From: a virus
Lineage: Duplodnaviria > Caudoviricetes
Reading direction: 5' to 3' (one strand)
Virus record (IMG/VR): IMGVR_UViG_3300033121_001571
DNA length: 64,000 nucleotides
How positions within the stretch are numbered: position 1 is the stretch's first letter; each line of letters starts with the position of its first letter. A program made the position numbers and the translations under genes. The notes beneath the pieces are model-generated. The model saw only the letters and a program-made list of their open reading frames with translations, searched no databases and was not told the origin of the DNA. Positions 15,422 to 36,277 of this stretch are shown here, in pieces.

Positions 15422-15592
15422 GTGAAGAGATGGGAACATCCCAATCCGAAGTGGGACTGCGTCTGGAACGCATGGTTCATGTTCCGCGCTTCTCAGACTC
15501 TTCGCGAGGCTTCTTACTGGCTCAGCGAGTTCCAGGCCAGGCGGCGTAGGGTCAAGGGAGTGAACATCGCTGAACAAGTAGTTAGGATCTAA
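15422..15592 (+). CDS. small Trp-rich hypothetical protein (not in ORF track)
   Basis: GTTAAC-17-TAGATT promoter at 15367, SD GAGGAGG, reads MKRWEHPNPKWDCVWNAWF... Confidence 0.55.
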   Translation: MKRWEHPNPKWDCVWNAWFMFRASQTLREASYWLSEFQARRRRVKGVNIAEQVVRI

Positions 15593-16024
15593 AACAGAGG
15601 AAACAGATCATGTCGCAACCCTTTTACCCCCTGCGAAACTGCAGAGGGAAGATCGACGACGCTGAGGGGGAAATCCGACGTGCCGTGTACCCGTTGGAGA
15701 TGTGGTTGGTCTACGACAAGGTCGAGCCCCCGTACTGGGAGATGGTGGAGATGTCGTCCACCCCCACCCTCACAGACGATCGTCGTGCAAGCGTGTACCT
15801 AACTCAGCGCGAGGGCGTCTGGCGAAGTGTGGCGTACGGGACGGGTCTTGTGGGTACCCACAAGACCTTACGGGAGGCCATGTTCTACGCCGAAGAAAAC
15901 GCGCGCGTTTTCTTCGACTGAAGAGTAGAAACAGGAGACATGGTTGAGGCGGCGTAGGGTCAAGGAGTGAACATCGCTGATCCGATAGTTAGAATCTAGA
16001 ACGGAGGAAACAGATCATGTCGCA
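15538..16024 (+). repeat. ~80-bp direct repeats (gene end + promoter + SD + start) flanking ORF 15610..15921
   Basis: aggcggcgtagggtcaagg(g)agtgaacatcgctga...gaggaaacagatcatgtcgca at ~15538-15617 and ~15946-16024. Confidence 0.85.
15610..15921 (+). CDS. phage hypothetical protein
   Basis: Own promoter (15560) and SD GAGG. Confidence 0.8.
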   Translation: MSQPFYPLRNCRGKIDDAEGEIRRAVYPLEMWLVYDKVEPPYWEMVEMSSTPTLTDDRRASVYLTQREGVWRSVAYGTGLVGTHKTLREAMFYAEENARVFFD

Positions 16025-16241
16025 CCGTGCTCGAGTCTACCACAACATCGAGAGTCTGGCTCGTATCACCCACGCTCGCCGGGCTCGTCGTCGGTGGAAG
16101 CTCCACGTGGAGAAGCACGGGAACGTCCCTCTGGTCGACAAGTGTTCGATCTGTCGCGAGCACGACGCGAAGAGCACTCCGAGGCGCTACCTGGAAGGCG
16201 AGGCGCGCATTCCCAAGCGCGTCCGCGATCTCACGGAGTGA
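16017..16241 (+). CDS. small basic hypothetical protein with CxxC
   Basis: Own promoter (15967), SD GGAGG; stop TGA lies in the next -35 box. Confidence 0.75.
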   Translation: MSHRARVYHNIESLARITHARRARRRWKLHVEKHGNVPLVDKCSICREHDAKSTPRRYLEGEARIPKRVRDLTE

Positions 16242-16272
16242 ATAGACGACCCAATTGGGATAGATTGGGTTC

Positions 16273-16632
16273 ATGAAGACCACCACCAAGAAGCGTCTCA
16301 CCAAGAAGCGTCTCGCCGAGTCCAGCATGGAAGAACTCGTGTGGGACCTGTGGAGTTCCTACTCGGAGTCGGACGTCGACGGCGTCTGTGGAGTTCTTCC
16401 CTGTTGGGGTCCCTACTCCGACGAGAACGGCGAAGATATCGATCAGGACAAGGCGCGTGAAACGTTGAAGGAGACGATCAGGAACAAGTCTCACCTCAGC
16501 GAAAGTGCACTCGACGATGTCCTGTTCTCGATCGAGGCGCTCCGGGAACGCACTTCCTACGACGAGCGATGGGTTGCGAAGAACGTGAAGAACTGGACGA
16601 TCATCCTTTTGGATGACCAGAAGTCCCAGTAA
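16273..16632 (+). CDS. phage hypothetical protein, leaderless
   Basis: GTGAAT-17-TAGATT-6-ATG from 16238. Confidence 0.8.
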   Translation: MKTTTKKRLTKKRLAESSMEELVWDLWSSYSESDVDGVCGVLPCWGPYSDENGEDIDQDKARETLKETIRNKSHLSESALDDVLFSIEALRERTSYDERWVAKNVKNWTIILLDDQKSQ

Positions 16633-16703
16633 AGTCCAAGTCCTAAACTCGACCTGAGTTAACATTCTCTCTGGTTGGGATATAGTTGTCTCAACCAGAG
16701 AAA

Positions 16704-16757
16704 AGGTCGAAACCCCCGCAAGGGGGTCGCACCGTCACGCGGTGCCTGACGAGACCT
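16704..16757 (+). ncRNA. Type II hammerhead ribozyme
   Basis: AGGUC-GAAA-CCCCC(GCAA)GGGGG-UC^-GCACCG(UCACG)CGGUGC-CUGACGA-GACCU: all core nucleotides and three perfect stems. Confidence 0.93.
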
Positions 16758-16767
16758 GAAGGTGAAC

Positions 16768-17010
16768 ATGAACCAGATTCTCAACGAGATCTTGTTTGGT
16801 CTGTTGCGCCGTCACGCTCCCGATCGTAAGCGATACCTCTTCTTGCGGATCGAAGATCCCTCTGGCGCGGTGACGTTCTCTGTCGTCCCCGTGGATGACC
16901 GCAGCGTTCACCCGATGCACATGATGGAGTCGATGATCGGGTGGCAGAACGATGACTGGGACGCTCAGGTGGCGCTCTCTCGTCGAGTCACCGTAGAGCG
17001 TCGTTCCTGA
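16768..17010 (+). CDS. hypothetical protein downstream of the hammerhead
   Basis: SD-like GAAGGTG before the ATG; promoter GTTAAC-17-TATAGT at 16658. Confidence 0.7.
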   Translation: MNQILNEILFGLLRRHAPDRKRYLFLRIEDPSGAVTFSVVPVDDRSVHPMHMMESMIGWQNDDWDAQVALSRRVTVERRS

Positions 17011-17248
17011 CAGTCACTCTGCGAGATTTCTCGCGAAGAGCTTTCTCTGCAGTTTTTCTCTTCGCGTGCAAGAGGTACACGATGTAAGCGCGTGACCGTA
17101 TGAGCGCCGGGGCGAGCGACATGTCTGTGATTATCTGTTCGATCGCTCGAAGACGTGCCACGTAGCTCTGCCTCAGAGCGACTTCTATGTCCAAGAGATC
17201 TTGGAGATCTTGCTTGATGAAGCGCGAGACGTGGTACCAAAACTTCAC
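16988..17248 (-). CDS. hypothetical protein
   Basis: SD AGGAG upstream. Confidence 0.65.
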   Translation of the reverse strand: MKFWYHVSRFIKQDLQDLLDIEVALRQSYVARLRAIEQIITDMSLAPALIRSRAYIVYLLHAKRKTAEKALREKSRRVTVRNDALR

Positions 17249-17457
17249 TTTGTCTCCTTTGGTGTCACGTTTAGATCACTCCCACATCAGAGCACGCCAG
17301 ACTACGTCTGCGTACATGTACGCGATGAAGAATAGCACGAGGAACGCTACGAACCCACCGGGTTCATAACCTCCACGGAAGAATCTGTTTCTTGTGTCAA
17401 GAGGCTCCGCCAGCGGAGGTCCTGATCGAGATCCAGTTCCTGAGCCTCGAGCGAGAA

Positions 17458-17760
17458 TCACTGCTTCCACCCAAACGCGGCCGCGACTGCAACCACTGCT
17501 GTGAGCAAGAAGATCCACGTCAGGACCACTCTGCGATAGCGAGCGTCTGCTCGCTCGTTCGCAGCAATGACTTCATCGAGTCCCATCAAAGGGCACGGTT
17601 CATAGGGAGCGATAATGGGCGGGGGTGGCGGAGCTCGTCTCCCGTAACGTCTCTTGTGCTCTGGCACTTTGTGGACTACGTACTCACAGTCTTCACAGCA
17701 CACGTGATCGCTAGAGCGAGACGTTGCCTCGCCACAGTGTCGACAACGTGCTTCAGTCAT
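17458..17760 (-). CDS. Zn-finger-like protein with C-terminal TM helix
   Basis: CRHC...CEDC, Pro-rich linker, hydrophobic C-terminus. Confidence 0.6.
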   Translation of the reverse strand: MTEARCRHCGEATSRSSDHVCCEDCEYVVHKVPEHKRRYGRRAPPPPPIIAPYEPCPLMGLDEVIAANERADARYRRVVLTWIFLLTAVVAVAAAFGWKQ

Positions 17761-18220
17761 GATCCCATTCTTCGACTTTAAAGCCCTCCGCAGTCGCGAC
17801 GACGAGCACGTGGTCACCGAACACGTCAAGCAGGACTTCGTCACACCTGTAGCACGCGGCTTCGAGGGCCTCGAACTCCTTCACCAGCTTCTTCTCGGCG
17901 GGCGTACCCTTCTTGTGATCGAAGAACCCAGACGCGCACCCGTCACCGTGACAGTACTCTTCAGTGTTGTCTTTGAGATTGATGTCTGACCTGACCTGAC
18001 TGGGATCGATCTTCAACTCAAATGTGTTGACAGAGAACGTGCAGGCTTCTCCGTCGTTCCAGTACGGCGTGTACTGAGTCCACATGACCGCTTTGGCCAT
18101 AGGGTTCTCAGAGAAGAACTCCTTGAATGCGTTCTTAAGTACAGACTCCCCCTCGCGTATATACTTCTTGCGAGCCTCTTCGATTTCCTCCGCAAGCTTC
18201 TCCATCTTATTCGTTAACAA
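17753..18220 (-). CDS. conserved phage protein (TQYTPYWNDG motif), neighbour of the DUF6915-like gene
   Basis: WTQYTPYWNDGEACTF; SD AGGAG. Confidence 0.75.
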   Translation of the reverse strand: MLTNKMEKLAEEIEEARKKYIREGESVLKNAFKEFFSENPMAKAVMWTQYTPYWNDGEACTFSVNTFELKIDPSQVRSDINLKDNTEEYCHGDGCASGFFDHKKGTPAEKKLVKEFEALEAACYRCDEVLLDVFGDHVLVVATAEGFKVEEWDHD

Positions 18221-18245
18221 GCTCTTTGTCTCCTTTGTCTAGTGT

Positions 18246-18599
18246 CTAATCAATCTTAATGAACTTTGTGGGTGACTTCCGGCGTACGCCACCCATCCAG
18301 TCTTCCACTTTCATGTTCCTGAGCCACTTCTCAGGCGTGGGAATGAAGCCAAGATCTTCAATCACGTGGTCTTCACCCAAGTCTCTGACGCAGACTTTTC
18401 GTCCGTCACTGTTCGTGATCGTCGGACCAAACACGCGCTCGAGCACGAAGATGCCGAACGTGGAGTGAAGCAGAGCTCTGTGACGAGTGTCAGCGAGAGT
18501 CGCTTTCGACGAGTCGAAGAAATCGTGAACGGCTTGGTAGTCTTCCGGAACTCCACCGTACTTCTTGGCAGAGTTCTTCGCGTGTTGGTACGGTTTCAT
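18246..18599 (-). CDS. DUF6915-like protein
   Basis: MKPYQHA..SAKKYGG, HDFFDSSK, HRALLHS, GEDHVIEDLGFIP. Confidence 0.8.
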   Translation of the reverse strand: MKPYQHAKNSAKKYGGVPEDYQAVHDFFDSSKATLADTRHRALLHSTFGIFVLERVFGPTITNSDGRKVCVRDLGEDHVIEDLGFIPTPEKWLRNMKVEDWMGGVRRKSPTKFIKID

Positions 18600-18606
18600 T
18601 GCCCTC

Positions 18607-18801
18607 TCAGAGGAGACGTTTTCGTATCGCTAGCGCGTCTGCAGCAACGTCTTTGCTCGCTCGCAGCTCGTCGAGAGCAAGACGGTACGCTTCGGAGTAC
18701 TCCGGGTGCTCACAGATCTTGATCAACCTGTGCTTGTGTTCTGGCGCAAACTGCAGAGCGCCAAGCAAGTAGAGCAAAGACGTTTTTTCTTTGTCGTTCA
18801 T
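18607..18801 (-). CDS. hypothetical protein
   Basis: Promoter GTGTAC-17-TAGAGT upstream. Confidence 0.65.
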   Translation of the reverse strand: MNDKEKTSLLYLLGALQFAPEHKHRLIKICEHPEYSEAYRLALDELRASKDVAADALAIRKRLL

Positions 18802-18866
18802 GGCGCACGCGGTTCGGAGCAAGTGCTCCGAACCGTGACTCTACCCTTTCTGAGAGAGACGTACAC

Positions 18867-19148
18867 TCAGTACAGAGGAAAGTCTTCGACCTTGTAGACC
18901 CTCAGGGGTTCGCAGAACCACATGCACTCGTTGAAGTGCTCGAGTGCATCACGCACTTCGTCCTCCTGCAGGAGCTCACCGTCGACCCCTCGCTTTCGAA
19001 GCACTCGAGCGTTGCGCTCCATCACGAGACGCTCTGCGTCGGAGAGCGACGGGAGCACACCGATGAACCTGACCTCACGATCCGAAGTGGGATCGAGATC
19101 TTCCGAAAAGACGATCGTCATTTCCGAGTTGTTGGAGGTGTTGTCCAT
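18867..19148 (-). CDS. hypothetical protein, leaderless
   Basis: GTGAAT-17-TAGAAC-6-ATG (19183..19146). Confidence 0.8.
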   Translation of the reverse strand: MDNTSNNSEMTIVFSEDLDPTSDREVRFIGVLPSLSDAERLVMERNARVLRKRGVDGELLQEDEVRDALEHFNECMWFCEPLRVYKVEDFPLY

Positions 19149-19179
19149 GAACTAGTTCTACCCTCAAGAGGGAAGAGAT

Positions 19180-19395
19180 TCACTCCGCCGCGAGCGCAAA
19201 CGTGTAACAACAGTGCCACCTGACTAACTCAGGATTGGGTGAAAACTTAAGTACGAGCAGGAAGCCATCACTCATGGCGCGCAAGTACATACCAGTGACA
19301 AAATCAAAGTTAATGACGTTATATGCTACGATATCACCCACTCGGGCGTCATCAGGATTAAAGGCTGGTATGTGCTTGCGCGAGCTTATCACCAT
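19180..19395 (-). CDS. xGD-family small protein (central satellite cluster)
   Basis: ARVGDIVAY. Confidence 0.65.
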   Translation of the reverse strand: MVISSRKHIPAFNPDDARVGDIVAYNVINFDFVTGMYLRAMSDGFLLVLKFSPNPELVRWHCCYTFALAAE

Positions 19396-19494
19396 TCACC
19401 TAGAACGGTTCTCTGTCACTTCTCAGTGACCCACGAATATCTTTCAATGACTTAGGGTGGGTACCTATGGCTTAAACCCAAGTGTGTTTGTGGG

Positions 19495-19683
19495 TCACTC
19501 TGTGGGTTTGCACAGGTGTGCACACCACTCGCCCGACCAGTAACTGACTTTCCCAGTTGGGAGTTCTATCACTATGTACTGTGGATATCGAAGAGGTCGA
19601 TAGACAACTCCTGCAACAAGCGCTACGTACTCGCGACTGAGGTTAGTCGCGTGGTAAACCAGGTCGCCGACTGAGATCTTCAC
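19495..19683 (-). CDS. xGD-family small protein
   Basis: ISVGDLVY. Confidence 0.7.
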   Translation of the reverse strand: MKISVGDLVYHATNLSREYVALVAGVVYRPLRYPQYIVIELPTGKVSYWSGEWCAHLCKPTE

Positions 19684-19894
19684 GCTTAGAGATCACTTTC
19701 ACGAAGTCGTTCCTAAAGATCCAGATGACTTTGCATGAAGACGTTAAGACAATGTAGTCAAACACGCTCTTCACGTAAGAAGGTCGCGTTAACACGACTC
19801 CTATGTGATCTGGAGCACCGTAACCGTCATAGTCGGCAAGGTCTTCATCTAGACACCAGACTGCAACCAGATCGCCGACTTTGACCTCTTTCAT
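19643..19894 (-). CDS. xGD-family small protein
   Basis: MKEVKVGDLVAV, IGVVL. Confidence 0.7.
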   Translation of the reverse strand: MKEVKVGDLVAVWCLDEDLADYDGYGAPDHIGVVLTRPSYVKSVFDYIVLTSSCKVIWIFRNDFVKVISKREDLSRRPGLPRD

Positions 19895-20190
19895 TTCACT
19901 GTGCTCTCTTGAGCAGAGAGCTTCACTCTTGAGTTCTTCAAGTGCTTCTGACACTCTTCCAGAGAGTCATTGCAAAGGGCTGCTAATAGCTTCACTCCCA
20001 AGCAATTATCTGCGTGGTACGGAAGCTCCATACGACCGGAGTTCCAAGACATGCAACAGAACGCGCACGTCCGCCACAACGAATGCTCCTGGTAATCGTC
20101 GACTTGCTCGAGCAGACACGGAACAGTGTTCCGAAGTTCCTCGATTGAGGAGGAGTCTGGAAAGAAGAGAATGTTCTTGTGAAGGATCAC
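19891..20190 (-). CDS. hypothetical protein with CxxC/HxxxC
   Basis: CAFC, HADNC; coupled. Confidence 0.6.
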   Translation of the reverse strand: MILHKNILFFPDSSSIEELRNTVPCLLEQVDDYQEHSLWRTCAFCCMSWNSGRMELPYHADNCLGVKLLAALCNDSLEECQKHLKNSRVKLSAQESTVK

Positions 20191-20468
20191 TTCAGTGAGA
20201 TCTTGATCACGTCAGTTGGAATGCCCTTCCACCCGTCTGTTGGGTGAAAGAAGACTGTTGCTACGGTGCCATTCCCAGCGACGAGACGTGGGCCCTTCGA
20301 GGTGAGAATCTTTCCGAACCGGATCTTCCCACCCAAGTACTTTTTGATCTTTGGGATCTCTATGTCCGGGAGACCCAACGCGCCAGATGAGGCGTACGTT
20401 GCAGCGGAAGCATCCAAGAACGCCTCTGCTGCTTTCTCTGAAATGATATTTGCTGTCTTGATCTTCAT
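20187..20468 (-). CDS. hypothetical protein
   Basis: Clean ORF. Confidence 0.65.
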   Translation of the reverse strand: MKIKTANIISEKAAEAFLDASAATYASSGALGLPDIEIPKIKKYLGGKIRFGKILTSKGPRLVAGNGTVATVFFHPTDGWKGIPTDVIKISLK

Positions 20469-20563
20469 TGCTCTCGGGTCTACGTATACGAGAGCAAGAG
20501 ATCGTTAACTGATGAAGCGTTTCTTGTCTTTCTTGTTAACTCTATCTTTCTTGAGAGAAGAGT

Positions 20564-20908
20564 TCACTCTGGCAAGAGACAACCGTTGTCAGACAACCAC
20601 TTCATATTCTTCTCGTACGTGGCAGCGTCTGCTTTGACGAAAGGAACACTCCCTGACCAGACCCACTCGTCTCCCATCCAGACGTATACGTCCATCACGT
20701 CTGTGAAAGCAGGTACGTTGCGCTTAGGAAGCACGCAGAACTCCCAAGCGTAGATGGGATTCTCCGACTTGTGCTTCTCACAGTGATCCACGAGATAAGC
20801 GTGGAAAGACTCGTACGCTCCGGGCCATTGCTTCCACATCTTCTCGATGTCGTCGAGACTGAGTCCTCTGTGGTTTAACATCTTTTTTCCTTGGGACTTG
20901 GTCTCCAT
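20564..20908 (-). CDS. hypothetical protein, leaderless
   Basis: GTGAAC-17-TAGATT-6-ATG (20943..20906). Confidence 0.8.
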   Translation of the reverse strand: METKSQGKKMLNHRGLSLDDIEKMWKQWPGAYESFHAYLVDHCEKHKSENPIYAWEFCVLPKRNVPAFTDVMDVYVWMGDEWVWSGSVPFVKADAATYEKNMKWLSDNGCLLPE

Positions 20909-21049
20909 GAACCCAATCTACCATTTCAAGGACGAAAGTTCACTCGTCCTCTTCGTCTTCTTTGCCGTAGTGAAACTCTGCGGCTTCGTCACCGTACATG
21001 CTGGCTAGCAGGGCAAATTAAGCGTTAAGGAAGGAGAGAAGAATCAAGC

Positions 21050-21273
21050 GCGGGCGCAACCCGCGTGAATAAATCCAGAGTCTGCATGACCTTGTCCCTT
21101 CTTCTCAGCACAGTTCGTCGTGGTGAGTGCTTTCTCTAGACGCTGGAAGCGAACAACTAGAGACAAGCGAGTTTCACTACATCTCACCTAAGAATTGCTC
21201 TAGGTGAGGAACAATGTCATGCGGGCGCAACCCGCGTGAATAAATCCAGAGTCTGCATGACCTTGTCCCTTCT
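21050..21273. repeat. Two identical 53-bp direct repeats with a hairpin, 118-bp spacer
   Basis: gcgggcgcaacccgcgtgaataaatccagagtctgcatgaccttgtcccttct at 21050-21102 and 21221-21273. Confidence 0.9.
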
Positions 21274-21356
21274 CCGTTTAGGAATAGACCAGGCCTTTGG
21301 CAACTGGTCCTTGTTGCATCACCACCTGACCAGAGTATACTCTGGTCAAGAGAACC

Positions 21357-21608
21357 TTACACCGAGGAGAAAACCTTCGCCAGGATCTCGTCGTGATCCT
21401 TCGTGGTCATCTTGAGCCACTTGTGGTACAACCCGCGGTGCTCGCGAGGGAAGTCGCTCAGCGAGAGCTGATCAGCAACGATTTCGCTCACCTCTTCGCT
21501 TCCGAAGCTCCCGTCGGAATCACCCGCATCGGAAGCGATTCCGCTCCAGACAGAGAGAAGAACTCGTTCGAGAACGTTGAACTCTTCCTTCGTCAGATTG
21601 ATTCCCAT
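21357..21608 (-). CDS. hypothetical protein, leaderless
   Basis: GTGTAT-17-TAGAAC-6-ATG. Confidence 0.8.
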   Translation of the reverse strand: MGINLTKEEFNVLERVLLSVWSGIASDAGDSDGSFGSEEVSEIVADQLSLSDFPREHRGLYHKWLKMTTKDHDEILAKVFSSV

Positions 21609-21684
21609 GAACTAGTTCTACCTCTTCTAGACCTGCGATACACTGCGAGTGCAGGGACCTTCGCGCGCTACGCGCGCGGGAGTT

Positions 21685-22002
21685 TCACTTCCACTCGCAA
21701 TCCCGGACCTTCTTGTCCACGGGACCCATGTTCATGGAGTGAGGCTCGCCACAGACGTACACCTTCTTGTGAAGAGGGACGTACGTCTTCTTCTTGTTGA
21801 CGCTCACGATGAGCTCGGGAAGCACGACGCTCGTCATCGGCGCAGCTTTCACTGCGGGAGGATCCTCGCGGTGATTCGTGGTCTTCTTGTTCTCCGAACG
21901 CAGAGCAGCGCTCTTCCTCTCCCAGCGAAGCTCGTCCTGAGCCTGCGACACTGCGGCGTACGAGAGAACCAGAGCGATGATGGAGAGTGCGGTGGTCTTC
22001 AT
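21685..22002 (-). CDS. exported/signal-peptide hypothetical protein, leaderless
   Basis: N-terminal signal peptide; GTGAAC-17-TAAAAC-6-ATG. Confidence 0.8.
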   Translation of the reverse strand: MKTTALSIIALVLSYAAVSQAQDELRWERKSAALRSENKKTTNHREDPPAVKAAPMTSVVLPELIVSVNKKKTYVPLHKKVYVCGEPHSMNMGPVDKKVRDCEWK

Positions 22003-22099
22003 GAACTAGTTTTACCCTTTAGGTGACGAAGGTTCACTCACTTTCTCGTCTTCTAGAACTAGAGTGTAACGTTTACGTAAACCAGAATAACATCTGTCC

Positions 22100-22312: not shown

Positions 22313-22380
22313 CTCTGCTCAACTGAGCAGTGCAAGTCGCTGCTCAACGTTGTATAGTCTCTATACACAGGAGGTACCAG

Positions 22381-23521: not shown

Positions 23522-23524
23522 GCG

Positions 23525-23620: not shown

Positions 23621-24013
23621 CTATTTCTTGTTGACGATCAGGTCGTACCTGGGTACCATCAGCCCCATGAGCTCCCGCTTCTTCTTCCGCGTGGCAGCTG
23701 CTTTCTTGCCAGCTTCTCGGCGACGACGAGTGATCATTGCTTTCTCCGCTGCCTGGAGACGCTTCAGCTGATCACCAGGGATGGCGCGGAACTCGGCGAT
23801 CTTGATCGAAGATTTCTTCGAAGAAACAGCCTTAGCGTACGACTTCATGACACGGTTCGTGATGTACTCGTTCGCCCAGTACCATACCGCTTCCATCACC
23901 GGGCCCTCGAACCAATCCTCGATCTTGATCGAGAATCCTCGACGACCAGTCTTCGGCGACCTCGGGCGGTGAACAGAGACTACGTAAACCCTGTTGGATA
24001 CTGTGTTTTCCAT
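23621..24013 (-). CDS. basic hypothetical protein, leaderless
   Basis: GTGAAC-17-TAGATC-6-ATG; KKAAATRKKK. Confidence 0.8.
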   Translation of the reverse strand: MENTVSNRVYVVSVHRPRSPKTGRRGFSIKIEDWFEGPVMEAVWYWANEYITNRVMKSYAKAVSSKKSSIKIAEFRAIPGDQLKRLQAAEKAMITRRRREAGKKAAATRKKKRELMGLMVPRYDLIVNKK

Positions 24014-24044
24014 GAACTAGATCTACCCTTTCAAGAGAGAAGGT

Positions 24045-24389
24045 TCACGCGAAGTCTTCGTCGCCGACACTTTCCTCGAACACGTACGGAACACCAGGGA
24101 AGTACACGATCGTACCCAAGCCCATTGCGTCTTGGCACATGGAAGACAGGGCTTCTGCGATCTCTTCTGCGATGTCGGAACGATCGAACTCTTCGTTCTC
24201 TGAGAAATTGGCTGCACGAACACTACCATTGAAGAGCGCACGGAGAATCTCCGCGCAGAACACTCCGACGGTGTTGTAGATCACGATTCCGAGACACTCT
24301 TTCCCGTACATCCCTCGCCCAGAGTACGAGCGCGTGGTTCCGATTTCAGGGTCGAGTTCACAGATAATCTGCATCGGGTGCTTCTTCAT
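24045..24389 (-). CDS. conserved phage protein (YSGRGMYG motif), leaderless
   Basis: RSYSGRGMYGKECLG...DAMGLGTIVYFP. Confidence 0.8.
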   Translation of the reverse strand: MKKHPMQIICELDPEIGTTRSYSGRGMYGKECLGIVIYNTVGVFCAEILRALFNGSVRAANFSENEEFDRSDIAEEIAEALSSMCQDAMGLGTIVYFPGVPYVFEESVGDEDFA

Positions 24390-24706
24390 GGTCTAGTTCT
24401 ACCTCCTGTTGAGCAAAGGTTCACTCATGTGGCGCAGTGATCAAAGTCTTGAGTGATCTAACGCACAGCGTCGTACGAATCCAGATCCAGCGCGAGCGTC
24501 CGACCGCGAAGATCCTTCACTTCCTTGGCAGAAATGCCATACTTGTTGGTGATATCCTTCCCGATCATATCGTTGAGCTCTTCGACACTCATCTTCGTCA
24601 CGGGAACGAGAATCGAACCCTTGTAGGGACCGATTCGGTACGAGAACAGATGCAGCTTCTCGGTCATGGTCTAGTTTTACCTCCTGTTGAGCAAAGGTTC
24701 ACTCAA
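24387..24706 (-). repeat. Near-identical ~41-bp promoter repeats flanking ORF 24458..24667
   Basis: catggtctagtt(c/t)tacctcctgttgagcaaaggttcactca at 24387 and 24665. Confidence 0.9.
24458..24667 (-). CDS. hypothetical protein, leaderless
   Basis: GTGAAC-17-TAAAAC-6-ATG. Confidence 0.8.
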   Translation of the reverse strand: MTEKLHLFSYRIGPYKGSILVPVTKMSVEELNDMIGKDITNKYGISAKEVKDLRGRTLALDLDSYDAVR

Positions 24707-24902
24707 CACTCGTGCTAGCACGGAGATCCAGACCCGCACACACCAAGTGTTTCACACTCGTAGAATCAACGTCTACGACTGCTTCTTCTCTCACGAGAGT
24801 ACACGCCTTCTTAAACGACACTCCGACGTGCTGTTGCACTGCCTTGATCAAGGCAAACTTTGACATGAATGGCGCAAGAACCAACTTGACACGTTGAGTC
24901 AT
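24699..24902 (-). CDS. degenerate ribosomal L7/L12 C-terminal-like domain protein
   Basis: KFALIKAVQQHVGVSFKKACTLVRE resembles KIxxIKAVRxxTGxGLKEAKxLVE. Confidence 0.45.
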   Translation of the reverse strand: MTQRVKLVLAPFMSKFALIKAVQQHVGVSFKKACTLVREEAVVDVDSTSVKHLVCAGLDLRASTSVE

Positions 24903-24925
24903 GACTTTTCTTACTCCGAAGAGTT

Positions 24926-25051
24926 TCACAACGCGAAGAAGATCTTTCCCACGGAATACGCCATCATCCCCCACAGAAAGCAGAGGACGAGATCGATGCT
25001 CGTGTCACGACCAGAAGGTTCCTTCAACCACTCGATGACCTTGCTCTTCAT
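24926..25051 (-). CDS. 41-aa membrane peptide, leaderless (not in track)
   Basis: GTGAAG-17-TATATT-6-ATG; MKSKVIEWLKE...LVLCFLWGMMAYSVGKIFFAL. Confidence 0.6.
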   Translation of the reverse strand: MKSKVIEWLKEPSGRDTSIDLVLCFLWGMMAYSVGKIFFAL

Positions 25052-25581: not shown

Positions 25582-25591
25582 TTGATTCTAC

Positions 25592-25861
25592 TCACTTAGC
25601 GGTGGAGTTGCACTGTCGGCTCTCGATCGCTGCTGCGACGAGGGCGTAGAGAGCACCCGCGGTGTAGCGGATGTACACTGCTTCTTCGGCCCTGTTATCG
25701 AGAGAAAATCTTGCGCCAGCATGCATGGCGTCATACACTGCGTCGAAAACCCTCCCTGAATTGACGACCCGCACCATTTCGACTGTGCGATACCAGTGCT
25801 CAGGGCGTCGGGAGGCGAAAATCCTCTTTGCTTCCTCGTGAGCCTCTTGCAAAACGTCCAT
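25592..25861 (-). CDS. hypothetical protein
   Basis: SD GGAGG. Confidence 0.7.
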   Translation of the reverse strand: MDVLQEAHEEAKRIFASRRPEHWYRTVEMVRVVNSGRVFDAVYDAMHAGARFSLDNRAEEAVYIRYTAGALYALVAAAIESRQCNSTAK

Positions 25862-25910
25862 CTCAGCCTCCGTAGAGAGACTCTACACCCCCAACGGTGA
25901 AGTTACACTC

Positions 25911-26234
25911 TCACAGACACTGTTTGTTAACGAAGTCTCTGAAAGCGTTTTTCGACGCGAGGTTATGAACCTCGACAGCCTTGAAGAAGTACTGTTTCTT
26001 ATAGCTATCGTCGGTAAAAACGAGCTCCAACGGAGCACCGTCTTCCACCCAGTAGGGCCACGAAGAGATCTGATCTCTTGCTTCACGTATGAGAGAACTG
26101 TGACCCAAAACAAGAAACTCCTCGGCGAGCTCTTTGGCTTTCGCAAAAGAATCCACCACGATGAAATCTTGGTAGTGAGTTTCGTCCGAACCACAGTATG
26201 GACGAAACCCGTACGTGATCAAAGTGAGTTGCAT
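25911..26234 (-). CDS. hypothetical protein
   Basis: Clean ORF in minus-strand run. Confidence 0.7.
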   Translation of the reverse strand: MQLTLITYGFRPYCGSDETHYQDFIVVDSFAKAKELAEEFLVLGHSSLIREARDQISSWPYWVEDGAPLELVFTDDSYKKQYFFKAVEVHNLASKNAFRDFVNKQCL

Positions 26235-26457
26235 GTTTTCTTTTCACTCACAGAAGTGAGAGTCCACTCCAAAAAAGTAACGAGAGAACATGAGCAACGG
26301 CGGCCGACGGCCACTCACGGCATGATCAATGCAATTGCAGTGTACCGAGAGCAGGGTTCTGGTCCTGATCGATGACTACAACCATCCTCTCGTCACTTTT
26401 TTGGAGTGAACTGTTGTCTCTTGATAAGAGAGATACTACCTCAAGCAGAGAGACAGT

Positions 26458-26688
26458 TCACTGCGGGTCAACACTAACGTAGAAAACGTGACCCTTTTCA
26501 CAGACATACGGAATCACGTTGTCATCCCAGGAGTACGAACCCGTGAGCTCTTCTCCGTAAACGACACCGATGTCTGTACCGAGCACGTAGCCCTCCAGAT
26601 CGGGATCGTTGAACTTGATCTTGTCTGTCCCGCACTCGGGGCAGCACTTCACTCCAAAGTCACTTGGAGTTTTCTTTTTCTTTCCCAC
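26458..26688 (-). CDS. Zn-ribbon hypothetical protein
   Basis: CPECG...CEKGH. Confidence 0.7.
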   Translation of the reverse strand: MGKKKKTPSDFGVKCCPECGTDKIKFNDPDLEGYVLGTDIGVVYGEELTGSYSWDDNVIPYVCEKGHVFYVSVDPQ

Positions 26689-26692
26689 GTGA

Positions 26693-26860
26693 TCAGTCGT
26701 CCTTCTGAGAGAGGAGCTTGTTCAAGCGCCTCTGAGCCCGAGCCGAACGGTTCTTCGCGTACATCTTCGCGGAGCTCTTGCCAGAGCACCCTCCCATGTC
26801 CTTCCCCAGAGTGATGTACTGAGCCACGCGAGCCTCGACCCGACGGATCTGCTTGACCAT
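26693..26860 (-). CDS. 55-aa basic peptide, leaderless (different frame from the track ORF)
   Basis: GTGAAA-17-TAGATT-6-ATG; MVKQIRRVEARV...ARAQRRLNKLL. Confidence 0.7.
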   Translation of the reverse strand: MVKQIRRVEARVAQYITLGKDMGGCSGKSSAKMYAKNRSARAQRRLNKLLSQKDD

Positions 26861-26920
26861 GAACCCAATCTACCACTCTACGCTCACAGTTTCACAGTTG
26901 CCTGTATAATAGGCTGTTGA

Positions 26921-27507
26921 AAACAGAGATGCCCACGGTGAAGTCACCGTGGGCATTCCTTATTTGCCTTCACGTAGTTTGAATTCTTTGGGCTCTGTGT
27001 AAGTTGCAGGAGAACCTTGTATGATAGTATCATGATCAGCCGCCGCGACGAAGTCCTCACTCTCCTCACCGCATTCCGCCATGGCTACCACACGAACGTG
27101 GCCAAGAGCGTGATGAACAACCGCGATGCTTGTGCCCTCATCCTTTGGAAGATGGGTCCTCAGACGAAGTCCCAACTCACCTCAATCCTCAATGCCTGGC
27201 GCGGAAAGCCTCGCGCGCAAACGTACCTCTTCAACTCGTCTCACTCTGGCGGGTATGGGTGCGTCGCTGTCGATCCCATGCAGCGTGGATGGACCATGTC
27301 AAACGACGGTTGGTCGGGCATCGTGCGTCAGCCCTCTCCGGGTTTCAAGACGTTCTTCCGTAGAACTTACTGGTATCGCATCTCCAAGGGAACCTACGCC
27401 CCCACCGCCGAGTGCACTAAGCGGATGGCCGAACTTGGTTTCATCTGAGTGAATTATCAAGAAACAAAGATGCCCACGGTGACTTCACCGTGGGCATTTC
27501 TTATTTG
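26921..27507. repeat. 46-bp terminator-hairpin direct repeats flanking gene 27032..27448
   Basis: aaaca(g/a)agatgcccacggtga..tcaccgtgggcatt.cttatttg at 26921-26966 and 27462-27507. Confidence 0.9.
27032..27448 (+). CDS. hypothetical protein (possible winged helix), paralog of 33771..34205, leaderless
   Basis: GTGTAA-17-TATGAT-6-ATG from 26997; LNAWRG and YWYRISKGTY. Confidence 0.8.
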   Translation: MISRRDEVLTLLTAFRHGYHTNVAKSVMNNRDACALILWKMGPQTKSQLTSILNAWRGKPRAQTYLFNSSHSGGYGCVAVDPMQRGWTMSNDGWSGIVRQPSPGFKTFFRRTYWYRISKGTYAPTAECTKRMAELGFI

Positions 27508-27516
27508 AGAGATTGT

Positions 27517-28134
27517 CTAAAACACGTGCCGCCGGAACGTAAGAGAAACTCGAGTTCCAGTGCGTTCGGGTTGTTCCGGAATGCCGTGCTTGAACAGTGA
27601 ATCACACTGCCCATACATGATGAGCAAGTCACCATGGCCCAACTCTAGATCAATGGTTGGTTTGCTACGATCATACTTGTTCGTCACTGGATTATGAGGG
27701 TGAAGCTGAAAAGTTCTTGTGGCACCGAATGAAACAGCGACGATAGTGGGATCACTGCCCAATTGGGGAATGTATGTAGAGTCTCTGTGTGGATAGAGAC
27801 CAGAGCTTGGTTCGTATGAGTTGACAACAACGCAGTTTGGCGCCCAGCCCAGTTCTTCACTCACTAGTTGCTGTAGCGTAGTGAGTGTGGGGGTCATTGG
27901 ATGCATAGGCTTAGACTTACCCTTGTAAGTGTAAGTGATGCCGCGGTCACCAAAACGCGCCATAGCGTGACCACGATCGAAGCCCCGCCCAAATTTGAAG
28001 TGGCTGGCCCAACGCTGGTGTGTTTCTTGAACAACAGCGTAACCGTATTGGTCAGCTTCGACCTGAGTCAACCACGCAGGTACGTGAACAACTGCGTTCT
28101 GTACGATAACCTGTCCGCGCGGAGGAGTGTTCAT
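27517..28134 (-). CDS. alkB: AlkB-family 2OG-Fe(II) dioxygenase
   Basis: NCVVVNSY, HRD, VSFGATRTF, GDLLIM, KHGIP, RVSLTFR; leaderless promoter puts the start at 28134. Confidence 0.92.
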   Translation of the reverse strand: MNTPPRGQVIVQNAVVHVPAWLTQVEADQYGYAVVQETHQRWASHFKFGRGFDRGHAMARFGDRGITYTYKGKSKPMHPMTPTLTTLQQLVSEELGWAPNCVVVNSYEPSSGLYPHRDSTYIPQLGSDPTIVAVSFGATRTFQLHPHNPVTNKYDRSKPTIDLELGHGDLLIMYGQCDSLFKHGIPEQPERTGTRVSLTFRRHVF

Positions 28135-28207
28135 GAACAGAATGTAAGCTTTGCCTAAGAGCTGTTCACTACGACAGGACAAATCTTACGAGTAACCGAA
28201 AGATGAG

Positions 28208-28548
28208 GTTTTCCACAAAAGAACAGTGCCGAACTGATCCCTAGCGCTAGGGATTAGGTCTGCATGCAAGACAAAGAGTTACACAGCGTTCCAACTAACA
28301 CAGAGATTGCTACCACTCTGTTAGGGATCGAACCTACCTGTGTACTTCTTTTTCGGCACTGTTCTTTTGTGGAAAACTGTTCATTCCAGAAGAGTGATGA
28401 CAGAACCGTTATCTCTTGGCCGAGAGACAACGAGTGTGTACAAGCACAACTGTGCTTCAGTTTGGGCACCAAGCCGCCACCCGAAAAAGTGGCTCAGGGA
28501 TCGAACCTGATAACCTCAGCGACGATCTTCTGTCATCACTCTTCTGGA
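28208..28548 (-). ncRNA. Tandem pair of long-stem RNAs with permuted tRNA-like modules (YrlA/Y-RNA-like)
   Basis: 21-bp and 26-bp perfect stems, each enclosing a GGUUCGAUCCC T-arm, an acceptor-like hairpin and a GG D-loop-like segment; own promoter at 28600..28572. Confidence 0.7.
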
Positions 28549-28596
28549 GAGAACGTTTCTAACCTTAGTTGACCCTACACCCCTGGAGAGAACTGT

Positions 28597-29037
28597 TCAC
28601 TGCGGTGGGATGAGAAACCCGTCTTGGTTCGTGACCAAGAATCCATTTTTGCTTAAGGTGTTGCACGCATTCACGACTGCATTGGAATCGTGATGAACAA
28701 AAAGAGTCAAGATCACGTCACCCAGGAGTTTGTCGCCCCCAACCGAGGCGTCCATGATCTCTTGAGAGACTTTCACTTCGTCTTGCGAGGTGGGAAAAGG
28801 TCTCGTGCTCCTACCTTCACACAAAGCGCAGTCTAGATCACTGCAAGCGCTATCGTTCCACGTGTTGCACGTGAAACACGCGTATGAATCCCGAGCTGAC
28901 GAATAAATGCACTCTCGGTTGCACCGGGAACAGAACTTACCTCGCTGCCTGTTTTCTCTCTTCTTCTTTGTGCCACCAAAGATCGTGGTGACGTGAGAAG
29001 AGAAAACTTCTTGAAGCCTCTTGAACATTTCTTTCAT
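28597..29037 (-). CDS. Cys-rich (Zn-binding) hypothetical protein
   Basis: CSRC, CFTC, C..LDCALC. Confidence 0.75.
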   Translation of the reverse strand: MKEMFKRLQEVFSSHVTTIFGGTKKKRENRQRGKFCSRCNRECIYSSARDSYACFTCNTWNDSACSDLDCALCEGRSTRPFPTSQDEVKVSQEIMDASVGGDKLLGDVILTLFVHHDSNAVVNACNTLSKNGFLVTNQDGFLIPPQ

Positions 29038-29153
29038 GAACTTGAAGTCTCCAAGAAGATTGGCACCCCGCCTCTGAATCGAACAGAGAGCTCTGAGCTT
29101 AGAAGGCTCTGGCGCGGGTCCACCGCGCGGGGCAAGTACTGGATATGTATACC

Positions 29154-29426
29154 TCAGACGCGAGAGTTGTACTCTGCGTTGCGAGGCTGCTCCACGAAAT
29201 TGCTCGAGCGGAGACGCTCGAGCATGTTAGCAGCGTCCAAGAAAAACTTGAGTGCGTCGGTGAGCACGAGCGCAAACTGCTCAGTGTTCTTGTTGTTGCG
29301 AACAACGTTGAACCACAGTTCGTACTTTTCCACGTCGAAAGACACCGTCAGCGACGACACCCTGCTGTTGATCTCTGCGAGTTTGATCAACGGAAGTCGA
29401 CGACGAAACTCGATCACGTCTCCCAT
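29154..29426 (-). CDS. hypothetical protein
   Basis: SD AGGAG; MGDVIEF start. Confidence 0.7.
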   Translation of the reverse strand: MGDVIEFRRRLPLIKLAEINSRVSSLTVSFDVEKYELWFNVVRNNKNTEQFALVLTDALKFFLDAANMLERLRSSNFVEQPRNAEYNSRV

Positions 29427-29600
29427 GAGGAGATCTCCTTGTTCTCTAGCTCTCGTTCTCGACGAAGCCTTCGATCACGAAACTTCTGCTTTCGCGGGTG
29501 GCGCTTTGCCATAGCAGCTACCACGCTCAAGCGTTTATTGCGTTTCTTCACCGTGTCCTCCAGTTGAGCTAACTATAATCAACTGTAGAACTTTTGACAC

Positions 29601-29846
29601 TCACAGAGAGGAGATCTGACCCTTCACGATCTTCAAAATCGTTCTTGAGTCGACAAGAGTACACTTTGCCGTGATCTCTTCGATCCTCTTCTTGGGAATA
29701 TCGTAGTGCTTGTACACGCTGGATGCATGAAACCAACACCTTTTGATGTTCAGTTCCTGCGCCATTCTGTGGAGATTTTCCACAGTGTACGGGAGGCAAA
29801 CCAAGTGCCTTGCACTGTCACAGACGTACTTGATCTCACTCACCAT
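29601..29846 (-). CDS. DUF4031-like protein, leaderless
   Basis: HLVC...LHRMAQELNIKRCWFH...HYDIP; GTGCAA-17-TATGAT-6-ATG. Confidence 0.75.
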   Translation of the reverse strand: MVSEIKYVCDSARHLVCLPYTVENLHRMAQELNIKRCWFHASSVYKHYDIPKKRIEEITAKCTLVDSRTILKIVKGQISSL

Positions 29847-29910
29847 GATGAGATCATACTCAACTTGACGTTCTCTTGCACTCACGTGCAAGAGAACGTC
29901 AAGGCAACTG

Positions 29911-30279
29911 TCACTTACAGCTTTCCTTGAGCTTGGCGAAATCGTTCTCGAGAAGAGCCTTCTCCAGAGCGCTCTCGTGCTTCCCCAACGCCTCGCGAGC
30001 TTTCTTGATCTCCTCGAGACGAGCCTTGCTGTACATACCCTGTGCGGGCGAGCCGTCGGCGTTGAACAACTCGTTGTCCGGCTTATCGACCTTGCGAAGC
30101 TCGGTCATCAGATGGAAACGCTTCTGGAGTGCCTTATCGAGCAGCGCGACGCGCTCGCTGACCTCTTTCTCGACCATCGCATCGCGTAGTCGATTGTAAA
30201 CTTCCGGGCCTGAGTCCTTGATACGATTCGCCACGTCGGCAAGCAGACCCTGCGTCTTCGTCTCTTTCGTCTCGCTCAT
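29911..30279 (-). CDS. helical hypothetical protein
   Basis: High-GC codon bias. Confidence 0.8.
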   Translation of the reverse strand: MSETKETKTQGLLADVANRIKDSGPEVYNRLRDAMVEKEVSERVALLDKALQKRFHLMTELRKVDKPDNELFNADGSPAQGMYSKARLEEIKKAREALGKHESALEKALLENDFAKLKESCK

Positions 30280-30288
30280 GATCATGTC

Positions 30289-30630
30289 CTATCGGTGTTG
30301 CACCCAGCAGGTGCATGGGGTGGAACGGTACACGCTTCTGACCTTGTCACGTGCCTCTTTGGCACGCTCAACAAGCTTTACCACTGAAAGGTACTCGGTA
30401 TCACTTACCGAAGTGATATAATCTGCGTACGTAAGACGCTGCTTCTGCTTCGTCAAGTGGATTTGTGCCTCTACGTACACTGACAAATATGTGGAATGTC
30501 GTTCACACGACAAGAGACCAAGACGGTCATCTTGAAGAAAATTCTCGAGAAGTCGAGGAAGCAACTCAGACGTAGCTTGATCAGCTCGAGACTTCACCTC
30601 TGCATCGAGTGCATCAAGAAGTTTCATCAA
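30289..30630 (-). CDS. hypothetical protein
   Basis: ORF in minus-strand run. Confidence 0.65.
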   Translation of the reverse strand: MMKLLDALDAEVKSRADQATSELLPRLLENFLQDDRLGLLSCERHSTYLSVYVEAQIHLTKQKQRLTYADYITSVSDTEYLSVVKLVERAKEARDKVRSVYRSTPCTCWVQHR

Positions 30631-30660
30631 GAACCATCCTATCTCACGTAGAGGAGCAGT

Positions 30661-30861
30661 TCACTGTTTGATTGCAGTGAAGACTGCGGGATATCCTTCT
30701 GCGATAGACGCGAAACACTCGTCACTGTCACACACGGGCGTACGCTGCGTGAGCCCGATCTGAGTTTCGACAGTGCCAACTGCTTTCTTCTGGCAGTTGT
30801 ACACTCCCGAAACACCATTTTTCGTCTGGCGGCGTTTACCCTTGCACTTTTCTTTGGACAT
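30661..30861 (-). CDS. small Cys-containing protein, leaderless
   Basis: GTGAAC-17-TAAAGT-6-ATG. Confidence 0.75.
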   Translation of the reverse strand: MSKEKCKGKRRQTKNGVSGVYNCQKKAVGTVETQIGLTQRTPVCDSDECFASIAEGYPAVFTAIKQ

Positions 30862-30879
30862 GAACAGACTTTACTCTGG

Positions 30880-31107
30880 TCACGTTCGTCGTTCACTCTC
30901 CCCCATCGCAGGCATCTCGCGAACGTCGTCACCCATGTCATGGTCCAGATAGGCGATGATCTTCTTTTCCATCTCTTTTAGATAGAGAAGTTCGCACCAT
31001 TCCTCCTCGTCGTTGAGATCCCAATCATTTATCTCGAGACGGTCTCTGATCAGGTTCAAGACGAAGTTAACTTCGTCTTCGTGAAAGATCAACACTTTTT
31101 CTGCCAT
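30880..31107 (-). CDS. acidic hypothetical protein, leaderless
   Basis: GTGCAA-17-TAAGAT-6-ATG. Confidence 0.75.
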   Translation of the reverse strand: MAEKVLIFHEDEVNFVLNLIRDRLEINDWDLNDEEEWCELLYLKEMEKKIIAYLDHDMGDDVREMPAMGESERRT

Positions 31108-31216
31108 GAAAAGATCTTATCTCTCGACGAGATAACTTGCACTCTTGATCTCCTCTTTGCTGCGATTCAAATGACAGCGATGTGAATCGTAGTTCTAGAT
31201 AGATTAAGTTCTGTTC

Positions 31217-31513
31217 ATGAAGAAGTGGAACGCCGAAGCCATCACGCTCCTGTTGGACACCAACGACAAGGCGGTCGAGCGAGCGATCCTCGTCCTCTTT
31301 CAGAGGCAGACGCTCGACGAGCAGGCTTCTCGCACCACTCGCTGGAACAACAAAGTGGGGTTCCGTGCAAACCACGCGAGCAAGGGCACCTACTACGCTA
31401 AGTGGATCAAGAGCGGCCGCCCCTTGACCGGTTACCACTTGGCCAATGCTCGCAAGATCACGAAGCAGTACACTCGCCAGCTCCTCGAAGCGATCGCTGA
31501 GAAACAGAAGTGA
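31217..31513 (+). CDS. conserved phage protein (RQTxDEQ...NxVGF motif), leaderless
   Basis: AVERAILVLFQRQTLDEQ, NNKVGF, KQYTRQL; promoter at 31182. Confidence 0.85.
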   Translation: MKKWNAEAITLLLDTNDKAVERAILVLFQRQTLDEQASRTTRWNNKVGFRANHASKGTYYAKWIKSGRPLTGYHLANARKITKQYTRQLLEAIAEKQK

Positions 31514-31562
31514 ACTCTGCTCCTGAGCGAGATAGTATCACTCAACAGGAAGGAAACGAATC

Positions 31563-31835
31563 ATGAAGAAACTCCGAGATCTCATGCTCCGCACCGAAGG
31601 CGAGGAGGCAGTGGAAAACCTCTGTGCAGTGTGCGAAGCGTTGCACAAGCCAGTTTTCAAGCAGTTGATCAACCGGAACGGCTCGTGCGTCTCGGCGCTC
31701 ACCGAGTTCCTCGCAGACAACCCTGGTGCCGTCGAGGTTCTTTTCGACTGGATCGAGGAGAACTACACGGATGAGCTCGACGACGAAGACATCGAGGACG
31801 ACGAAGACTGTGACGGAGAAGAAGACACCGAGTGA
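31563..31835 (+). CDS. phage hypothetical protein with acidic tail
   Basis: EFLADNPGAVEVLFDWI; promoter at 31510, SD. Confidence 0.8.
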   Translation: MKKLRDLMLRTEGEEAVENLCAVCEALHKPVFKQLINRNGSCVSALTEFLADNPGAVEVLFDWIEENYTDELDDEDIEDDEDCDGEEDTE

Positions 31836-31866
31836 ACCTTAGCTCTGGCTAGGGTACAACTAGACC

Positions 31867-32126
31867 ATGGAAAACACGGTATTCAAGTCCTTCATCGGCA
31901 AGAAGATCGAGCTCATCCGCACCACCGCCCTGGTGCGCTTGCACAAAATGGAACCCACGGTTCCATTTTGTGCAAGCGCACCGACCCTTTCACCAGTCTC
32001 AAGCCTGGTGATCGGGGAGTCGTCGAGTCTGTCGATGGCATCGGCACGGTCCACGTGAAGTGGGAGAACGGGTCGTGCTTGGGCCTCGTCGCCGACGCGG
32101 GTGATCGCTGGAAGCTGGCAGAGTGA
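31867..32126 (+). pseudogene. DUF4314-like gene disrupted by a 56-bp palindromic insertion
   Basis: Removing the insert restores MENTVFKSFIGKKIELIRTTDPFTSLKPGDRGVVESVDGIGTVHVKWENGSCLGLVADAGDRWKLAE. Confidence 0.85.
31927..31982. mobile_element. Small palindromic insertion element (MITE/REP-like)
   Basis: 24-bp perfect IR ggtgcgcttgcacaaaatggaacc-cac-ggttcc..., flanked by caccg repeats; related copy at 54.6 kb. Confidence 0.8.
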
Positions 32127-36249: not shown

Positions 36250-36277
36250 ACTCTACTGCTTTCACAGTCTTTTTGCA

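Follow-up and report, generated by a model that had tools for sequence, protein, structure and literature searches.

A stop-carrying, promoter-like repeat as a probable joint of gene gain, loss and replacement in a phage hyperplastic region

The window analyzed here, a stretch of 64,000 nucleotides (nt) from a virus (Duplodnaviria; Caudoviricetes; IMG/VR virus record IMGVR_UViG_3300033121_001571), contains many copies of a short, promoter-like module, placed between small genes. A sequence-only reading had assigned three roles to it, namely stop codon of the upstream gene, transcription start of the downstream one and recombination joint, and the question raised is whether a single short sequence combines them. 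The answer favored here, and held to be probable, takes the module for a promoter of leaderless messenger RNA (mRNA), which also ends the upstream open reading frame (ORF), and for a dispersed repeat recombining among its copies, genes being gained, lost or replaced at or beside it, without a dedicated recombinase. As for the three roles, the stop is enriched, the geometry fits a transcription start and the copies appear to recombine; breakpoints are not significantly enriched within the strict motif, and no resemblance to an integron is found.

The module is a feature of a block of 30 kilobases (kb), at about 14–45 kb of the window, where the guanine plus cytosine (GC) content is 50–56%; on both sides the block is flanked by arrays of small, translationally coupled genes of 35–40% GC. 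The block is read as a hyperplastic region, in which the majority of small genes would form transcription units of their own. Most ORFs have no Pfam match and only two reach 300 amino acids (aa). For 20 larger ORFs of the window, Pfam and PHROG scans gave few family matches (a MoxR-like AAA ATPase, a KaiC/DnaB-like ATPase, an M78 peptidase, AlkB and a weak PUA domain), none of them to a recombinase. Rfam found one transfer RNA (tRNA) in the block and nothing else, and no T4 hallmark gene is present within the window. When searched by megablast, as pieces of 18 kb and 14 kb, the window had no nucleotide match among GenBank phages; its protein matches are all distant and point to jumbo phages, and its proteins are assigned, in the database, to a 284-kb contig. 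The source is read as an uncultured giant phage. Reassigned stop codons, considered as a reason for the abundance of short ORFs, were rejected, as stop densities show no sign of them.

Relatives were seeded by the 114-aa protein of gene 24389..24045, which retrieved a cluster of 98–100% identity: about 20 loci from JGI and Logan assemblies, 94–100% identical to the window at the nucleotide level. One of them, L018, is identical to the window, while L015 and L004 are near-identical contigs. A distant relative, L026, was also used, with a marker protein 41% identical and a contig of 56% GC. Gene calls for the tests on stop codons are those of the database's own caller, which is blind to the motif.

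The module, 38 nt in length, may be written as (A)GTGAAC-N17-TAGAAT-like-N6-ATG. In the window, 26 sites fit the form GTGAAY-N17-TANNNY; shuffled sequences give an expectation of 2.46, and none of them reached 26; 23 of the 26 sites fall within 15.5–42 kb, that is, nearly all in the GC-rich block. With the wider form GTGNAN-N17-TANNNY, 25 sites feature an ATG exactly 6 nt past the second hexamer and 35 nt from the first G. Information content sets in at -1, with an A, extends to about +41 and is flat further upstream; the conserved parts are GTGAAC, a pyrimidine-rich spacer, a G run, TAGAAT, a preference for TTC, the ATG and one A in codon 3. Sites of the canonical TTGACA/TATAAT kind show no enrichment (6 found, 8.1 expected), and therefore the GTGAAC class is distinct from canonical sigma-70 sites.

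From these distances, the two hexamers are interpreted as the -35 and -10 boxes of a promoter of the sigma-70 type, the former box being unusual. The predicted transcription start is the A of the ATG, which would give a leaderless mRNA and leave most units without a ribosome-binding site: in 25 modules the -10 TAnnnT hexamer lies 6 nt upstream of the ATG, and only a few variants, at 15560, 15967, 31510 and 40880, have a leader, of 20–30 nt with GGAGG. The modules at 28600 and 18866 precede structured non-coding RNA, and those at 31142 (minus strand) and 31182 (plus strand) are set back to back. Strong terminator hairpins are present at a few sites only in 19 kb; the units, therefore, probably give nested read-through transcripts. 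In L026, where the preferred first hexamer is GTGAAA, the module grammar is the same, -35 stops included. Outside this group, scans of IMG/VR with AlkB and the AAA ATPase led to distant contigs only (L001–L003), devoid of the motif but for two matches at chance level in L002; the motif is likewise unused in L024, L028 and L029, contigs with distant homologues of P0008 and P0037.

The TGA contained in GTGAAY had been proposed as the stop codon of the upstream gene at nine positions. At eight of them (16241, 19180, 24045, 24699, 26458, 28597, 31513 and 31835) this is what is found, and all eight ORFs ending there are also called as genes on L015 and L004. At the ninth, 32126, the window itself only offers a 52-aa ORF starting with TTG; in relatives, the same TGA is the stop of an intact DUF4314 gene, starting from ATG 31867. 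Two more stops of the same kind are present, at 20564 (gene 20908..20564) and 30661 (gene 30861..30661); in addition, the stop at 21357 is a TAA belonging to a GTGTAA box, and at 18867 a TGA directly adjoins GTGTAC. The earlier observation is correct, and broader than stated.

In-frame stops at the GTGA position are also more frequent than chance would have them. In L015, 11 of the 15 GTGAAN promoters preceded by a co-directional gene end it on the -35 TGA (p=0.0018, binomial test against 1/3). In L026 the -35 TGA is used at 4 out of 10 promoters, and the TAA at all 3 GTGTAA boxes. Taking L015 and L026 together, the -35 stop is found in 19 of 31 pairs, compared to an upper-bound null of 1/3 (p=0.0013). 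Genome compaction, if neutral, would predict about equal use of the three frames, including the one in which the TAG of the -10 box acts as stop; instead, of the genes reaching the GTGAAN box, 15 out of 19 do so in the TGA frame (p=6e-5), and a single gene ends on the -10 TAG. The stop overlap is real, lineage-wide, and exceeds what chance or neutral compaction would give. The distance from stop to ATG is exactly 31 nt five times in L015, four times in L026 and three times in L004: as the upstream ORF usually ends on the TGA of the hexamer, the whole 31-nt intergenic space is module.

Evidence for a role in recombination comes, first, from genes enclosed between module copies. Gene A (15610..15921, plus strand; 103 aa) is found, among the relatives, only in the strain of the window. 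It follows a first regulatory copy (15540..15617, plus strand), which includes the last codons and TAG stop of the upstream gene, the -35 GTGAAC at 15560, a TAGGAT -10 box, a Shine-Dalgarno sequence and ATGTCGCA; it is followed by a second copy, repeating the first (15948..16024, plus strand; -35 at 15967), which drives gene 16017..16241. The two copies, earlier described as about 80 base pairs (bp) long, do align over about 78 nt (15540–15617 and 15948–16024), with one indel and 8 mismatches. Gene A and one module copy are missing from L004, L005 and L014, and two types of junction, both within the 78-nt repeat, are observed at its opposite ends: L004 keeps the spacer and promoter of copy 1, L014 those of copy 2.

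The sole other homologue of gene A (78% protein and 85.5% nucleotide identity) is located on L033, in another phage, where it has no promoter and belongs to a translationally coupled operon. Nucleotide homology begins directly after the ATGTCGCA of the module and continues past the stop codon, through the Shine-Dalgarno sequence of the donor, up to the first 7 nt of the donor's next gene. Judging from the limits of this homology, gene A looks like a promoter-less foreign gene, captured with duplication of the resident module.

A second enclosed gene, the 69-aa ORFan 24458..24667 (minus strand), ends on a TAG of its own, with 33 nt left to the next -35 box. The promoter copy upstream of it (24664..24705, minus strand) carries, at 24699–24701, the TGA which stops gene 24974..24699; the copy downstream (24386..24427, minus strand) has its -35 G at 24424. 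The two, reported as copies of about 41 bp with one mismatch, do agree at 41 positions out of 42, over a stretch which opens 3 nt ahead of the -35 box and closes with ATGA. Among the 51 modules compared, these two pairs are the most similar, and in each of them the copies are adjacent and enclose one gene. Tandem gene duplication was rejected as the origin of the flanking repeats: the enclosed genes are unrelated to their neighbors. A homologue search found the 69-aa protein in no other context; both this gene and gene A have no homologues outside the phage group, one contig excepted. In relatives, a third gene, of 143 aa, lies between two copies identical over about 29 nt, starting with the GA that precedes the -35 box and ending with the TAGA in the -10 box; in L004 the first of these copies bears the 3' half of the 22925 promoter.

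Exchanges between modules at different loci are a second line of evidence. In L004 the 24048 promoter is identical, from the -10 box to codon 4 (26 out of 26 nt), to the 3' half of the neighboring 24424 promoter. At the 20567 site, the module of L014 is a couple of nucleotides away from the 19183 module, while L015 and the window have another version. Near-identical spacers are common to adjacent copies and are also swapped between loci. The allele of gene 20908..20564, moreover, is only 87% identical between the promoter boundaries (20567 and 20943), with 98–99% identity in the flanks. Indels end in the -10 boxes of the 20567 and 20943 promoters, and at +2 to +14 of the 28600 and 22925 promoters. 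Comparison of the relatives shows the module as a dispersed repeat family, whose copies apparently recombine, with genes added, deleted or replaced at them or next to them. Being repeated about 40 times, the module would serve as a substrate for homologous recombination.

The idea that insertions and deletions among relatives would be bounded by the motif holds in part. It is supported by the junctions within the repeat at 15617/15947, by the allele replaced between 20567 and 20943, and by the exchanges of promoter halves; these make up a minority of the about 21 distinct structural variants, detected between 15.1 and 34.4 kb by chained alignments of about 20 relatives, and, of the 32 distinct breakpoints, 4 lie in the strict motif of 38 nt, where 2.3 would be expected (p=0.20). 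In a wider zone, from -25 to +60, breakpoints do cluster (14 of 32, against 5.1 expected; p=2e-4).

Several further observations weigh, together with the count for the strict motif, against the favored reading. The clustering between -25 and +60 could also arise from selection for intact genes. Most junctions show microhomology of 2–4 nt. A gene block of 1267 nt (window 37030..35764), 99.4% identical in L015 (13989–15613) and L016, was relocated at non-promoter sites, being joined in these two contigs, at the hot spot downstream of the 20943 promoter, by 3–4 nt of microhomology. Deletions truncate a tRNA-like gene and other genes. Divergent patches, with 10–25% mismatches, interrupt a background of 0–1% divergence, and many lie within genes, far from modules. 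Terminator repeats, and not promoters, form the boundaries of gene 27032..27448. Of the two enclosed genes of the window, 24458..24667 is present in every relative covering the locus, and for 15610..15921 the direction of the event, gain or loss, is deduced from rarity. Finally, promoter function and leaderless starts are read from geometry, and the -35 box is non-canonical.

Part of these data would be explained if compaction and selection only were at work. The motif would be a promoter and nothing else, the stop overlap a by-product, the similarity among copies a functional convergence, and indels would end near promoters merely because gene-breaking variants are lost; the modules would have no role in recombination. 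The lack of significant breakpoint enrichment in the strict motif, the dominance of microhomology joins, including the relocation of the 1267-nt block and the gene-truncating deletions, and the divergent patches within genes all fit this account. It does not anticipate two different junction types within one 78-nt repeat, nor a 26-nt promoter half copied exactly, in L004, from the neighboring module, nor near-identical spacers, without known function, common to adjacent copies and swapped between loci. With the frame bias described above also against it, we regard this explanation as unlikely.

At the opposite extreme, module-flanked genes might be truly mobile cassettes, which excise as circles and reinsert at any module, the -35 stop being selected for portability. 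A precedent is available in the promoter-early stem-loop (PeSL) mini-circles, shown by inverse polymerase chain reaction (PMC2839356). Three genes between near-identical copies, two in the window and one in relatives, would be as expected, and so would the presence or absence of one flanked gene among strains and the sequence exchange between modules at different loci. No gene, however, was found in two module contexts: the only homologue of gene A sits in an operon without modules, the 69-aa gene has none elsewhere, and several rearrangements bypass the modules entirely. Free mobility of this kind seems doubtful to us. The same holds for a bolder proposal, here given as a speculation with little probability: the module as a portable gene socket, in which the -35 box ends any upstream ORF, the leaderless promoter removes the need for a ribosome-binding site, 40–80 nt of homology would allow excision and re-entry of circles, and a phage-specific factor would recognize GTGAAC, making up an integrase-free system, selected for evolvability, in a giant phage lineage other than T4.

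Less probable still is that the motif is not a promoter at all but a signal acting on RNA or bound by a protein (a processing site, a translational coupling element, an operator), with the TGA as a stop-to-restart junction in polycistronic transcripts: the departure of the -35 box from TTGACA, the presence of a G-rich run (GGAGG or GGG) 13 nt ahead of the ATG, the complementarity of GTGAAC to GTTCAT around the start codon and the paucity of terminators between units speak for it, against a TAnnnT placed exactly 6 nt ahead of the ATG and separated by 17 nt from a second hexamer, a textbook sigma-70-type leaderless geometry, the location of the motif also before non-coding RNAs and leadered genes with a good Shine-Dalgarno sequence, the back-to-back copies on opposite strands at 31142 and 31182, and modules which fold no better than shuffled sequences.

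Folding was evaluated for 12 modules, with z-scores from -1.8 to +1.0, and a hairpin of the PeSL or attC type was rejected on these grounds. The complementarity between the -35 GTGAAC and the consensus GTTCAT over the start codon involves module positions 0–5 and 31–36; a hairpin formed by the two, masking the AUG on read-through RNA, was also discarded, as variant modules show no covariation and the folds are non-significant. Two GTGAAC boxes face each other, on opposite strands, in a 56-nt near-palindrome at 26406–26461, which may be a bidirectional promoter or a hairpin. A perfect direct repeat of 53 nt, with a GC-rich hairpin and GTGAAT, is present at 21050–21102 and 21221–21273, the two copies being 171 nt apart. 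For gene 24013..23621, the database places the start internally (91 aa), while the leaderless ATG would give 130 aa; leaderless starts are probably under-annotated in this phage in general.

How the module might work, according to the favored reading, may be described as follows. Ordinary homologous recombination would take place between module copies; alongside it, illegitimate joining at microhomologies would occur, its products surviving only if each gene keeps a promoter and an intact frame. A promoter-less foreign gene could be captured behind the ATG of a module, with duplication of the module itself, and recombination between the two copies would remove it again. ORFs ending at the invariant 5' edge of the module would stay intact whichever module variant follows. 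As a hypothesis, this may explain why stops are preferred in the -35 box over those deeper in the promoter; judging from the frame bias, the part of the module open to exchange seems to be kept free of ORFs, which would fit with the idea of portability.

The remaining promoters of the region conform to the same plan. On the plus strand, the leaderless promoter 16238..16275 contains, at 16239–16241, the TGA which stops gene 16017..16241, with ATG 16273 starting the next gene. On the minus strand, leaderless promoters are located at 19146..19183, where the TGA at 19180–19182 stops gene 19395..19180, and at 24011..24048, where that at 24045–24047 stops gene 24389..24045. The promoter 30627..30664 (minus strand) similarly provides the TGA ending gene 30861..30661. 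At 20530..20567 (minus strand) the TGA stops gene 20908..20564, and the leaderless gene of 68 aa which follows in relatives is deleted in the window. The indel hot spot is a chimeric leaderless promoter (20906..20943, minus strand), where relatives have 379 or 1647 extra nt, from the -10 box to codon 5. Relatives also carry, directly upstream of a promoter module, an odd tRNA-like gene (tRNA-??? with a two-base anticodon according to ARAGORN; L015 13374–13449); in the window, a 470-nt deletion at 21004/21005 takes away its 3' part, its module and most of the 143-aa gene.

Further along, the promoter 26424..26461 (minus strand) contains the TGA of gene 26688..26458, and in five relatives a 772-nt deletion ends within its -35 box, just past the stop. 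In two relatives, the -35 box of the leaderless promoter 26858..26895 (minus strand) is the insertion site of a 635-nt cassette, which has a divergent promoter of its own and is flanked by a 7-nt duplication. Gene 27032..27448 lies on the plus strand, within a minus-strand run: with its own leaderless GTGTAA promoter (26997), it is found between two terminator-hairpin repeats of 46 nt (26921..27507). It is absent from seven relatives, with the junction within the 46-nt repeat; its copy in L014 features a frameshifting deletion of 116 nt.

The promoter 28563..28600 (minus strand), whose TGA stops gene 29037..28597, drives structured non-coding RNA: two tandem units occupy 28208–28600, and their start is only a few nt away from that predicted for transcription, which speaks for the promoter reading. 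Six relatives only have the second unit, with 88% identity, starting 7–8 nt past the -10 box; the same six contain an additional 135-aa gene between the RNAs and the alkB promoter.

Three more promoters are aligned on the plus strand. The leaderless promoter of gene 31217..31513 (31182..31219) is the one set back to back with the minus-strand promoter at 31142; the TGA of this gene belongs to a leadered promoter (31510..31565), with a Shine-Dalgarno sequence and ATG 31563, and gene 31563..31835 is in turn stopped by the leaderless promoter 31832..31869. A homologue of gene 31217..31513 (50% identical) adjoins AlkB (about 80% identical) at 9596–10621 of L001, an otherwise unrelated viral contig from IMG/VR, motif-free and with 60% GC; a distance of 3 kb separates the two genes in the window. 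The promoter 32123..32160 (plus strand) contains, at 32124–32126, the TGA stopping the DUF4314 gene where it is intact in relatives. In the window, the gene (31867–32126) is broken and frame-shifted by the insertion of a perfect hairpin of 50 nt (31927..31976; 25 bp; -46.8 kcal/mol, z=-10). Relatives without the 47–50-nt hairpin insert keep DUF4314 intact, and 10-nt direct repeats are found at the insert ends. A second copy is located at about 54653–54701, with a near-identical arm at 54666–54683; the hairpin is possibly a mobile element, small and palindromic.

New genes for anti-defence and host takeover arise in the hyperplastic regions of phages, and the turnover of such genes is known in detail only for PeSLs of T4-type phages. 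The region described here adds a measurable rule (stop in the -35 box, a 31-nt gap, a strong frame bias) and about 20 sister contigs from a natural population, in which individual events of gain, loss and promoter swap are preserved. The motif may also be used as an annotation rule for leaderless starts missed by gene callers, and as a candidate minimal promoter for this phage and its host.

The comparison with integrons, suggested by the sequence-only reading, starts from real similarities: arrays of single promoter-dependent genes, a recurring junction sequence, differences in gene content from strain to strain. Here, however, no tyrosine recombinase was found among 20 larger ORFs of the window, and the junction is an asymmetric promoter, lacking an attC-like hairpin, where the integron attC is an imperfect palindrome that folds; each gene has its own promoter, instead of one common Pc promoter, and the positions of the junctions vary, mostly with microhomology. 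At each defining feature open to testing, the analogy breaks down.

Morons of tailed phages, as described by Hendrix and colleagues, are genes with their own promoter and terminator, inserted between two other genes. Gene 27032..27448 resembles them, having its own promoter, opposite orientation and a terminator hairpin, and being present or absent among strains. Most units here, in contrast, are terminator-less and arranged in head-to-tail arrays, and the captured gene A brought no promoter, acquiring a duplicate of the resident one.

A better match is found in the PeSL cassettes known from T4-type phages, where experiments demonstrated both mini-circles and recombination from one promoter/stem-loop unit to another (Arbiol et al. 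2010, PMC2839356; Comeau et al. 2014, PMC4122927). In both systems intergenic motifs, containing a promoter in PeSLs and having promoter geometry here, are repeated among the small ORFans of a hyperplastic region, the unit includes the stop codon of the upstream gene, and sister phages differ by insertions, deletions and replacements at the motifs, for which the general recombination machinery suffices in PeSLs, as it probably does here, with no integrase. The modules described here differ by the absence of a stem-loop terminator, by a GTGAAC -35 box in place of the sigma-70 consensus, by a stop codon located within the -35 box, where that of PeSLs belongs to an AT-rich stretch preceding the box, by the predicted lack, in most units, of a 5' untranslated region and of a ribosome-binding site, and by a window without T4 hallmarks. 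The case carries the PeSL principle over to a lineage of giant phages which looks unrelated and uses another promoter, without stem-loop or, as predicted for most units, ribosome-binding site: PeSL cassettes are the closest known system, and the present module, with its predicted leaderless start, is a stem-loop-free variant of it.

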